A program made the translations under genes and the position numbers. A stretch of 64,000 bases of DNA from an uncultured Leptospirales bacterium. GTDB taxonomy: Bacteria > Spirochaetota > UBA4802 > UBA5550. Positions 48,133 to 59,857 of this stretch are shown here, one piece after another; the first letter of the stretch is position 1; the number at the start of each line of letters is the position of its first letter. The notes beneath the pieces were generated by a model. The model ran no database searches. It was not told the origin of the DNA and saw only the letters and a list, made by a program, of their open reading frames with translations. The stretch covers positions 303,621-367,620 of the forward strand of contig CAYTNW010000001.1 in the NCBI GenBank assembly GCA_964439325.1, written 5' to 3'.

Positions 48133-49887
48133 CTACGGCTTTATAACATCAGTCAGCTTCAGGTCATCAGAGTTAAGTACAATAATAGTTTTATCCTCTC
48201 TGTTGATATAGATGCTCTTTTCAAAGAATGTGATAAAGGTGTTTTCGTTTAATTTTTCCGATGATTTTGACACAAGCTTCAGGCTTGTATCAAACTTACC
48301 GAGGTAGAAACCGTCATTCTCCTTGACGATCGCGTAGATAAAATTATCCTTTATCTCTATAAAACTTCTCCAGAAGATATTGTCGACACCGGTCTTTGTC
48401 GCCTTCAGCGTCTCCCTGTCAAGAAGAGTAAGCCTGTGACCGGCCTGGTGCGTTCCTGCATGCGTGATCACCGCAATCCCGCCGGAGAAGACATCATATC
48501 TGCGGCCGCATATTGTCGTCACCGGTGACTGGAACTCGATTTTTTTCGTAGAAGTATTTATCATGTACATCACGTTGTTGTAATGTCCCCCTTCGAGGTA
48601 CTCTTTCACCTCAAGGTAGTAGACTTTAAGACCGAAAACCTCCCTGCCGGTATCTCCCGACTTCAGTCTGTCTTCCCGTTTATCGAGCTCCTTCTCCTTC
48701 TCTTTCAGGGCTTCCTCTTTTTTCTTCAGGGCTTCGTCCTGCGCGGCTTTTTCAACCGGTTTCTCTTTTCCGGCATCTTTTGTTTCACCGGTTGTTTTTT
48801 CTTTATCAGCGGTCTCTTTCGGCGTATCTTTATCTGTTTTCTCTTTCTTTACATCATCCTCTTTCTTCTTTATATCCTCTTCTTTCTTTACAATCTCCTT
48901 CTCATCTTTTTTGTTCCGGTTTTCGTTTTCAGCGACTCTCTTTTTCTCTTCGGTAATCTTTTTCTCCTCTTTCTTTACCTCTTCCTCTTTTTTCTTTATC
49001 TCATCCTCTTTTGCTTTTCTCTTTTCAGGTTCTTTTATCTTTGAGGTATCCTCTTTCTCTTTTTTGATCTCCTCTTTTTTCTTCTCAATCTTTACTTCTT
49101 TCTCCTCTACCTTCTTTTTCGCGGTTTCAGTCTCCTTCTTCTTCTCAACCAGTTTCTTTTTATCTTCATCAAGGTTCTTTTTCGACCTGTCAATGTCCTT
49201 CTCTTTTATGTTCACCATCTCGTTTCTGATGGTTTTGTCATCCTTCTCCCTCCTCACCTCTTTTTTTACTCTGTCATCTGAGATCACAAAGGGGTCTATG
49301 CCCCCTATCTCTCCGCGCTTATTCTGCTCTGTCAGAGGGATAATAATCGCGGTTTTACCGGGCCAGTCGCTCCACAGTGTCGAGAGACCGGCATTCTCCT
49401 TCGTGATATGTTTCATAACGGTGCTGCAGTATTTTGAGGAGAAATAGCCGGTATTCCCCCTGTATATCGCGTTGTAGTAAGATGTGTATAACGCGATGGT
49501 GTCGGCTTCTTTCTGTGTGTATCCATACAGCCCTTCGAGATATGCGGAGATGATGCGTCTGATATTGCGTATATGGTCTACCCTGGCTTCTTTATCGATA
49601 AAGATGATATCTGCGGAAAACTTCTCTTTTTCCTCTTTTGAAATAGCCCGTAACACGGAATATTTCATGTTGAAACGGGATAAACTGTCAGGTTTGACAT
49701 TTTTTACAATATATGAAAGTCTGTAACCGATAGATTTGATTTCGCTGACGCTCTCGCTTTTACTCTCCCTGCCGGTGAAATTGATAAAATCTATTTTTTT
49801 ACTCTTAATTTCATCTATATCCACTTCGTAGGAGTAGAGAGAGGGGGAAAACATAATCAATATCATCGCGAATATATACTTTTTCAT
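48133..49887 (-). CDS. P83/100-family spirochaetal protein
   Basis: Signal peptide. The N-terminal block IRNIRRIISAYL...YYNAIYRGNTGYF...ITKENAGLSTLWSDWPGKTAIIIPL closely resembles the Borrelia P83/100 block as I recall it (LRRILTGYL...IYNAVYRGD...SKENAGLSRVYSQWAGKTQIFIPL). It has a long K/E-rich central coil and a conserved-looking C-terminal domain. Confidence 0.8.
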   Translation of the reverse strand: MKKYIFAMILIMFSPSLYSYEVDIDEIKSKKIDFINFTGRESKSESVSEIKSIGYRLSYIVKNVKPDSLSRFNMKYSVLRAISKEEKEKFSADIIFIDKEARVDHIRNIRRIISAYLEGLYGYTQKEADTIALYTSYYNAIYRGNTGYFSSKYCSTVMKHITKENAGLSTLWSDWPGKTAIIIPLTEQNKRGEIGGIDPFVISDDRVKKEVRREKDDKTIRNEMVNIKEKDIDRSKKNLDEDKKKLVEKKKETETAKKKVEEKEVKIEKKKEEIKKEKEDTSKIKEPEKRKAKEDEIKKKEEEVKKEEKKITEEKKRVAENENRNKKDEKEIVKKEEDIKKKEDDVKKEKTDKDTPKETADKEKTTGETKDAGKEKPVEKAAQDEALKKKEEALKEKEKELDKREDRLKSGDTGREVFGLKVYYLEVKEYLEGGHYNNVMYMINTSTKKIEFQSPVTTICGRRYDVFSGGIAVITHAGTHQAGHRLTLLDRETLKATKTGVDNIFWRSFIEIKDNFIYAIVKENDGFYLGKFDTSLKLVSKSSEKLNENTFITFFEKSIYINREDKTIIVLNSDDLKLTDVIKP

Positions 49888-49944: not shown

Positions 49945-49990
49945 TTAACTTCAACAATTTTCGTTAAAAAAAGGTTCTTTTCTATAGTCT

Positions 49991-50148
49991 CCTGAAAAAG
50001 TCCATCCCTGGCTTTTTCAGGGCCGGTTTCGTGAAGTGAATTCACGAAACCTTACATTTTCAAGGCTTTTTTAAAACTGATTTGCCTTGAAAATGGTGAT
50101 ACATCCGTGTATCACTTTAACTGTTTCCTGTTTACAGGAAACAGTTAA
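49991..50148. repeat. Array of five consecutive perfect inverted repeats (stems 10, 11, 12, 8 and 14 bp)
   Basis: Stem 1: cctgaaaaag/ctttttcagg (49991-50021). Stem 2: ggtttcgtgaa/ttcacgaaacc (50025-50051). Stem 3: cattttcaaggc/gccttgaaaatg (50055-50095). Stem 4: gtgataca/tgtatcac (50096-50115). Stem 5: ttaactgtttcctg/caggaaacagttaa (50117-50148). Confidence 0.95.
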
Positions 50149-50295
50149 TCAAAACATGACAGATGAGGTTGTGCAGAGTTCTCAATGTACTGTTTTTTCC
50201 GTACCGGAGTTCAAAATTAGTTTCTACTTGACGGGATTTTTTGTTTTTCTATGCTGATTGGTAAAAGAATTCAATCAGAGGCATCAATAATAATT

Positions 50296-59075: not shown

Positions 59076-59110
59076 CGGAAAAAGCCAAGGATGGACTTTT
59101 TCAGGAGACT
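59076..59110. repeat. Partial copy of the dispersed hairpin element (same family as 49987-50051)
   Basis: cggaaaaagccaaggatggactttttcaggagact is 32/35 identical by eye to the reverse complement of 49987-50021. Its AGGAG is positioned as the RBS of the HAD gene (ATG 59116). Confidence 0.85.
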
Positions 59111-59115
59111 GGTAT

Positions 59116-59802
59116 ATGAGTAACGGGATTTTTCTCGCGTTTGACGTTGACGGCACAATCTATGATGCAGGTAATATACTTGAAGAGTCTTTCAGGCGCA
59201 CAATTGAAAGCAGTTTAAAACAGGGGCTGGCCGATTCCCTCCGTATTCCAACAAAGGAGGAGATCACTGCCACTCTCGGTTATCCGCTTAACGAGATCTT
59301 TTTAATGATCTATCCGTCAATGGACGGGCATACCAGAAGAGAACTCTCGGTTCTCTGGACCGGGAACCTTGTAAAGATGATCAGGGAGAAGAAAGGGAGC
59401 CTGATTGACGGAGTGGCGGAAACTGTAAAAGAACTGCACTCGACAGGCTATGAAATGCTTGTGGCTTCAAACGGAGCCAGGGACTATGTCGAAGCGATAC
59501 TTGAAACGTACGATTTAAAAAAATTGTTTTCTGAACCGTTTATCTATGCCGAAGGAGCTATAAAAAATAAAACAGATATTGTAAAAAGGTATCTCGGAGT
59601 GGTCCCCGGCGGCAGAATTATAATGATCGGTGACAGGTATACCGATCTCGCGGCAGCAAAAGAAAACGGAGTTCCGTTCATAGGATGTGCTTTCGGGCAT
59701 GCCGGAGCTGAAGAGATAGAGGGTGAAAAATATATCGTACATCATTTCGTGGATATTCCCGGAATGATAAAAAAGATTGAAGAGGATAAACGGGTTTCGT
59801 GA
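59116..59802 (+). CDS. HAD-superfamily hydrolase (PGP-like)
   Basis: Motif I AFDVDGTIYD; motif II ASNG; motif IV IGDRYTDLAAA. Confidence 0.8.
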   Translation: MSNGIFLAFDVDGTIYDAGNILEESFRRTIESSLKQGLADSLRIPTKEEITATLGYPLNEIFLMIYPSMDGHTRRELSVLWTGNLVKMIREKKGSLIDGVAETVKELHSTGYEMLVASNGARDYVEAILETYDLKKLFSEPFIYAEGAIKNKTDIVKRYLGVVPGGRIIMIGDRYTDLAAAKENGVPFIGCAFGHAGAEEIEGEKYIVHHFVDIPGMIKKIEEDKRVS

Positions 59803-59857
59803 ATTCACTTCACTAAACCGCCCCTGAAAAGCCATAGACAGGGCCTTTCAGGAGACT
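59793..59857. repeat. Full copy (inverted orientation) of the dispersed two-hairpin element
   Basis: ggtttcgtgaattcacttcactaaaccgcccctgaaaagcc...tttcaggagact. The first ~40 nt are 38/40 identical by eye to the reverse complement of 50012-50051. The HAD stop codon lies inside it. Confidence 0.85.

Follow-up and report, generated by a model that had tools for sequence, protein, structure and literature searches.

A block of about 160 bp in the genome of an uncultured Leptospirales bacterium, which contains five perfect hairpins in a row, is very probably a copy of a non-autonomous DNA transposon (MITE) that has spread in this uncultured Spirochaetota lineage. The block lies in a window of 64,000 nucleotides, the whole stretch of DNA analysed here (GCA_964439325.1, contig CAYTNW010000001.1, positions 303,621 to 367,620, forward strand). 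The host genome (GTDB Spirochaetota; UBA4802; UBA5550) is assembled into 4.11 Mb in 78 contigs. Unless stated otherwise, coordinates are window positions, and the main features are collected in the table.

Our analysis confirmed the presence of five perfect inverted repeats, here called H1 to H5, which the original prediction had placed at 49991-50148 from the sequence alone. Stem lengths of 10, 11, 12, 8 and 14 bp had been given. The first four were found as given, but the stem of H5 is 15 bp long. The gaps between neighbouring hairpins are 3, 3, 0 and 1 nt, in agreement with the claimed 0–3 nt. When the + strand of the block was folded as single-stranded nucleic acid, it reached −78.4 kcal/mol, compared with −31.6 ± 3.4 kcal/mol for 200 dinucleotide shuffles (z = −13.8; 0 of 200 shuffles were as good). 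The − strand gave z = −11.3 in the same test. The genes on either side were also as described in content and strand, with P83/100 on the left and the HAD, nucleotidyltransferase, def and fmt cluster on the right, transcribed divergently. An array of intrinsic terminators was rejected, as it had been in the original prediction, because both flanking genes point away from the block and only H2 is followed by a weak T-rich tail. Together with this tail H2 is terminator-like, weakly so and on the + strand only.

Features of the hairpin block, its flanks and two further element copies in the window
Feature	Position	Strand	Description
Borrelia_P83 gene (P83/100)	48133-49887	-	
Left flanking 4-mer	49981-49984	+	TCTA, decayed target-site duplication; 2 of 4 positions match the right 4-mer TTAA
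Full short-form MITE copy	49985-50144	+	160 bp; nhmmer model positions 2-160; best match in the genome
Left terminal inverted repeat	49985-49994	+	TAGTCTCCTG; family consensus CAGTYTCCTG; cross-copy conservation begins here
H1	49991-50021 (arms 49991-50000/50012-50021)	+	10-bp perfect stem (13 bp with one G:T)
H2	50025-50051 (arms 50025-50035/50041-50051)	+	11-bp stem, loop GTGAA
H3	50055-50095 (arms 50055-50066/50084-50095)	+	12-bp stem, 17-nt loop
H4	50096-50115 (arms 50096-50103/50108-50115)	+	8-bp stem, loop TCCG
H5	50117-50148 (arms 50117-50131/50134-50148)	+	15-bp stem
Right terminal inverted repeat	50135-50144	+	Inverse of the left repeat; family consensus CAGSAAACTG
Promoter-like sequence of the HAD cluster	50228-50255	+	TTGACG-16-TATGCT; outside the element
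HAD, nucleotidyltransferase, def, fmt cluster	from 50251	+	
Truncated second copy	59076-59111	-	Left repeat and H1; nhmmer C1:362696-362731, model positions 1-36
Truncated third copy	59793-59857	-	Left repeat, H1 and H2; nhmmer C1:363329-363477, only the first ~65 nt element-like

A short-word blastn search against the whole assembly revealed that the entire ~160-bp block, and not the single hairpins, recurs in the genome at 81–90% identity. Iterated nhmmer on the 4.1-Mb genome gave 60 matches, 23 of them full length. The boundaries of the window copy were set by multi-copy alignment and target-site duplication (TSD) analysis, and a covariance model of the whole element (R1) recognised this copy with 188.5 bits (E = 5.8e-53). 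The order of the hairpins is the same in the 23 full copies and in other genomes. This indicates that the five hairpins form one unit, and it speaks against the earlier suggestion of a nest of five different elements. The related suggestion of a miniature palindromic mobile element pointed in the right direction: the block is a single unit of this kind, with terminal inverted repeats and a target duplication of its own.

Full-length copies were found in a short form of 157–170 bp and in a long form of about 210–220 bp (157–222 bp over all copies), which carries a structured insert of ~52 nt (TGACGAACAGGACGTTCTAATGCCGCGAAGGACATGGATGTCCGTGAGCGGCC) in the loop of H4 (for example C31:31609-31820, C18:52726-52937 and C10:55006-55218). 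The insert contains nested palindromes, and similar long forms occur in other genera. Many of the seemingly partial nhmmer matches are derivatives with both ends present and an internal deletion, such as those reduced to H1 and H5. The two truncated copies in the window flank a small ORF region. All copies are intergenic, lying between ORFs, and the neighbouring genes are functionally unrelated. Only one ORF overlaps the window copy (56 aa, 50087-50257); it starts inside the element, runs into the flank and has no Pfam match. Membership in a known RNA family was rejected, because an Rfam 15 scan of the region with relaxed thresholds gave chance-level matches only, the best being the LasI thermometer with 24.7 bits (E = 0.14) against a gathering score of 76.

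The terminal inverted repeats are 10 bp long (CAGTYTSCTG) and are conserved across copies and genomes. We compared the 4-mers immediately left and right of them in 62 copies from several genomes, and in 37 the two were identical. On the right side these 4-mers are CTAA in 36 of the 62 copies, TTAA in 8 and CTAG in 6. In young copies the left slot holds CTAA, CTAG or TTAA, the same as the right 4-mer, and the non-default duplications in such copies were CTAG/CTAG (three times), TTAA/TTAA (twice) and CTAT/CTAT (twice). The flanking 4-mers are a true 4-bp TSD at a YTAR-like target. Among old copies of the host genome the two 4-mers match in only 3 of 12, and those of the window copy (TCTA and TTAA) have decayed likewise. 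The evidence for the TSD therefore comes mainly from young copies in other genomes.

Empty sites provided a second line of evidence. We joined the flanks of 10 host-genome copies and compared them with seven other genomes of the genus, in which 8 of the 10 joined flanks align unbroken across the junction, so that these sites are empty there. For a copy in another genus (genome G014), the filled sequence is ...GATTTA[GCAG...CTGTTA]GAAAGCG, as opposed to ...TTTTAGTAAGCG at the orthologous empty site in G063, where the 4-mer is present as a single copy. One empty site suggested a TA-only duplication, as in IS630/Tc1, and this was rejected upon the 62-copy table, which shows 4 bp, and the lack of DDE_3. 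The bases on either side of the central TA duplicate together, so that the duplication is 4 bp. No empty site was recovered for the window locus itself among sister species, whose P83-HAD intergenic regions do not align and differ in neighbours or promoters.

R1 detected the element in 20 of 64 genomes when the GTDB family was scanned and in 20 of 122 for the whole order; three families and six genera are represented. Copy number among related genomes varied from 0 to 40. In its own genus, 40 R1 matches were found in the host genome versus 0–1 in the seven other genomes, and in another genus 15 genomes contained 1–37 copies. As assemblies break at repeats, copy numbers in MAGs are lower bounds; three contigs of one genome (C207, C401 and C490 of G086) start inside the element at the same model position, which is typical of repeat assembly breaks. 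In a phylum-wide sample of 401 genomes, a model of the core only (H2 to H4; R2) matched 13, all of them in the same order. The matches of an exact-pattern scan over about 185,000 species genomes were almost all in uncultured Spirochaetota MAGs. This patchy, copy-number-variable occurrence is the pattern expected of a mobile element. A link to viruses or plasmids was dropped, as no matches to the element were found in viral contigs, phage records or plasmids. One 27-nt match between convergent ORFs in an 'Oscillospiraceae' MAG (JAISJJ010000028.1, 5532-5558, locus L046) was not accepted as an element copy, because it comprises H2 alone; it may be due to chance, a shared terminator or mis-binning. 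A different dispersed repeat of ~105 nt was observed in G014 (C8, about 313936-314044, in the right flank at L115). It occurs at >12 loci in G058 and at two more in G014, with 80–87% identity.

The search for an autonomous parent covered three Pfam families in 12 host genomes, where MAG assemblies often drop insertion sequences. DDE_3 (PF13358) was absent from all 12 genomes, DDE_Tnp_1 (PF01609) from 10 and DDE_Tnp_1_2 (PF13586) from 11. The DDE_Tnp_1 matches that were found lacked CAGTYTSCTG ends, and the flanks of the few DDE_Tnp_1_2 matches lacked the element termini. The element is an orphan MITE, whose partner transposase was not found among the three Pfam families tested. An origin from IS630/Tc1-mariner was rejected, because the duplication is 4 bp and PF13358 occurs in 0 of the 12 host genomes. 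The IS5 group duplicates a 4-bp YTAR target. The element has the 4-bp duplication in common with the IS5 family, with CTAA, CTAG and TTAA as its targets, but its termini start with CAG whereas IS5-group ends are typically GG or GA. Its duplication thus resembles that of the IS5 group, and membership in IS5 is not established; derivation from this family was set aside because matching termini and a matching transposase were not found in the host genomes searched, although the duplication fits. We propose that the element would be moved in trans by a DDE-type transposase, either cut-and-paste or copy-and-paste, that makes 4-bp staggered cuts.

Prokaryotic MITEs, such as Correia/NEMIS of Neisseria, ERIC, RUP and the QMITEs of Coxiella, have been reviewed (PMC10969869). 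In common with MITEs, the element is small (about 160 bp, below the ~500 bp of the class), non-coding and AT-rich, has terminal inverted repeats and a short TSD that decays with age, and is present in many dispersed intergenic copies with presence/absence polymorphism. Its copies often lie just upstream of genes, are predicted to give stably folded transcripts and are patchy among relatives, which is also common in MITEs. However, it has no sequence similarity to the named MITE families, and no cognate insertion sequence was found. Most MITEs are one long fold-back of their two ends, whereas here five independent local hairpins follow one another, compensatory change maintains each of them, and the last one is formed by a third copy of the terminal repeat, which lies inside the element. 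It represents a previously unnamed prokaryotic MITE family with an unusual hairpin-string anatomy. The BOX elements of Streptococcus pneumoniae (boxA-boxB(n)-boxC) are similar in being modular strings of stem-loops with variable modules, intergenic and often near gene starts, and the long, short and H1 + H5-only deletion forms are the module variants on our side. BOX is unrelated in sequence and host, and it has no clear inverted termini or target duplications, both of which are present here.

The hairpins are of two kinds. H1 and H5 incorporate the terminal repeats, and between them lies a palindromic core cassette made up of H2 to H4. The 5′ arm of H1 overlaps the left terminal inverted repeat. 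The 5′ arm of H5 (50117-50130) is an internal direct copy of the target 4-mer plus the left repeat, and its 3′ arm consists of the right inverted repeat and the right flanking 4-mer TTAA (50145-50148). A third copy of the repeat, located internally, folds back on the right end in H5. Compensatory double changes were found in 5 of 11 pairs of H1. Covariation was found across lineages in 9 of 11 pairs of H2, and in 10 of 12 pairs of H3, 5 of 8 of H4 and 8 of 13 of H5. Motifs in the loops and linkers (CCTCACATTTT, AAAATGG and TACATCC-TGTA) are conserved as well.

In an alignment of 19 copies from three genomes, 94% of cells were paired, as against 85.5 ± 0.5% upon shuffling, and double changes occurred in 25 of 50 pairs, as against 10.9 ± 1.8 upon shuffling and 7–12 in slid-partner controls. 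The H2-H4 core in nine genomes had double changes in 24 of 31 pairs. Within the host genome alone, Watson-Crick pairing was 85.7% (78.0 ± 0.6% shuffled), and 27 compensated double changes were private to one copy; the window copy has a private change of A:T to T:A in H5. Divergence from the consensus was 12.4% in paired and 21.6% in unpaired columns. In 10 of 12 old copies, pairing between H5 and the right flanking 4-mer persists in spite of the origin of this 4-mer in the target and the drift of its left counterpart. Stem mismatches were A:C in 57 cases and G:T in 42 (p = 0.16). Since the two are about equally frequent, the constraint is strand-symmetric, and a hypothesis of RNA from one strand was rejected because the asymmetry is not significant. 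The symmetry fits a cause at the DNA level better and argues against a one-strand RNA. The palindromes would thus be kept by a strand-symmetric process acting on DNA, which might be selection for hairpin or cruciform structure, or template switching during replication that perfects near-palindromes.

The latter could even mean that the perfect stems are a neutral by-product, as template switching in a quasi-palindrome copies one arm onto the other, so that both members of a compensatory pair appear at once and no selection is needed. In E. coli, mutation by quasi-palindrome correction is well established. This account agrees with the strand-symmetric maintenance, with private transversion pairs such as A:T to T:A, for which no wobble intermediate exists, and with the persistent pairing of H5 with its target-derived 4-mer. 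On the other hand, the slower change of paired columns suggests constraint and not correction alone, H3 is no less well maintained than the hairpins with short loops in spite of its 17-nt loop, and the master copies of different lineages retain all five hairpins. We regard a purely neutral origin of the stems as possible, but do not favour it.

Two further observations bear on whether the hairpins do anything for the cell. Another family of the order is represented by G084, where about 16 copies (loci L137-L143) contain the same H2-H3-H4 core with compensatory differences. The elements of this genome have different termini (CAGGMTGTCGATTT) and a 3-bp duplication (AAT or ACT). The H2-H4 core is thus combined with two end-sets. 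The right end of the G084 elements is again a hairpin formed by an internal inverted copy of the terminus.

The other observation is the orientation of the copies. It is the left end that points to the 5′ end of the neighbouring gene, often at 4–40 nt from the start codon, in 37 of 50 host-genome copies (p = 0.0009) and in 33 of 48 copies in other genomes (p = 0.013). Finding each hairpin to be a copy of an abundant REP/MITE family without positional preference had been named beforehand as grounds against the original prediction. This is largely what was seen, except that the copies are biased in position and orientation. In reverse complement the left end of the element reads CTTTTTCAGGAGACTG. 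In the copy at 59076 the element end lies 4 nt before GTATATG and supplies an AGGAG a few nt ahead of the ATG, the junction being ttcaggagactg followed by GTATATG and then by a 228-aa ORF. One orientation may be counter-selected upstream of genes through the weak terminator-like H2.

These findings could be read to mean that the whole element, or at least the core of H2 to H4, acts as a structured module with a function, either an RNA that stabilises, processes or insulates mRNA or a small RNA, which is spread by mobile ends and kept by selection for its fold at each locus. The strong covariation of all stems, including the 27 compensatory changes private to single copies, is in line with this, as are the core shared with elements of other termini and TSD length, the left ends turned toward nearby gene starts in both sets of genomes, and the conserved loop and linker motifs. 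But an RNA made from one strand should show an asymmetry of mismatches, which is not the case. Rfam gave no match, the core is confined to one order, the neighbours are unrelated, and sister species do without the element at the same loci. Moreover, the frequent internal-deletion derivatives persist even though they have lost H2 to H4. We consider such a function at each locus doubtful. A narrower version, which we think somewhat less probable still, concerns the H2-H3-H4 core only. It would be a selected structural module, which insulates, processes or stabilises transcripts or serves as a DNA structure for mobilisation, was captured by at least two end-sets with different duplications, and is kept folded at single loci by purifying or compensatory selection. 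The view of the element as a passenger alone leaves unexplained the conservation of five hairpins, the reuse of the core with other termini and the orientation bias.

A regulatory region specific to this locus, with operators or a divergent leader for P83/100 and HAD-def-fmt, is very unlikely. The block does lie between divergent genes, 98 nt from the start codon of P83, and a search between the element and P83 revealed no sigma-70-like promoter for that gene, which would allow the element to be part of the P83 leader. However, the same 160 bp is found at about 60 unrelated loci, and the promoter-like sequence of the HAD cluster is outside the element and is conserved at three sister-species loci that lack it (L084, L087 and L088). 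The stem sequences vary freely as long as they remain paired, unlike sequence-specific operators. Copy number and insertion polymorphism largely refute a locus-specific role. The idea of a multi-operator regulatory hub could not be upheld, given that the insertion is absent from orthologous sites of sister genomes at other loci, that the neighbours are unrelated and that the HAD promoter lies outside. That of a structured divergent leader or sRNA fared no better, as there is no Rfam match and no strand asymmetry in the stem mismatches, and insertion polymorphism and unrelated neighbours speak against it too. Most likely, the window copy is a passenger between two divergent promoters and not a dedicated regulator.

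Mobilisation as single-stranded DNA by a hairpin-recognising Y1/RAYT transposase, as for REP/BIME or IS200/IS605-type elements, would suit the hairpin-rich anatomy, the intergenic location and the modular variants, but it is least probable of all, since Y1-transposed elements have neither the TSD nor the terminal inverted repeats found here and the stems are AT-rich whereas those of REPs are GC-rich. REP, BIME and REPIN sequences mobilised by RAYT likewise are dispersed extragenic palindromes that occur as clustered hairpins, but REPs are 20–40 nt long and have no target duplications, whereas the present element is 160 bp long, has inverted termini and duplicates 4 bp of its target.

For annotation, the hairpin block should be read as a transposon copy instead of a regulatory hub, and the same label can be given to the roughly 60 blocks of this kind elsewhere in the genome. 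The covariance models of the family can be used to mask it or to track it in metagenomes. Our results add a MITE family from an uncultured Spirochaetota order, the body of which consists of five independently maintained hairpins. The many compensatory double substitutions private to single copies form a clean natural data set on selection for structure versus template-switch correction of quasi-palindromes. The core cassette is common to elements with different termini and duplication lengths. All three features are worth following up. If it is indeed a selected module, the H2-H4 core would be mobile structured cargo rather than junk filler. The orientation bias, together with at least one donated ribosome-binding site, suggests that copies of the element can affect the expression of neighbouring genes.
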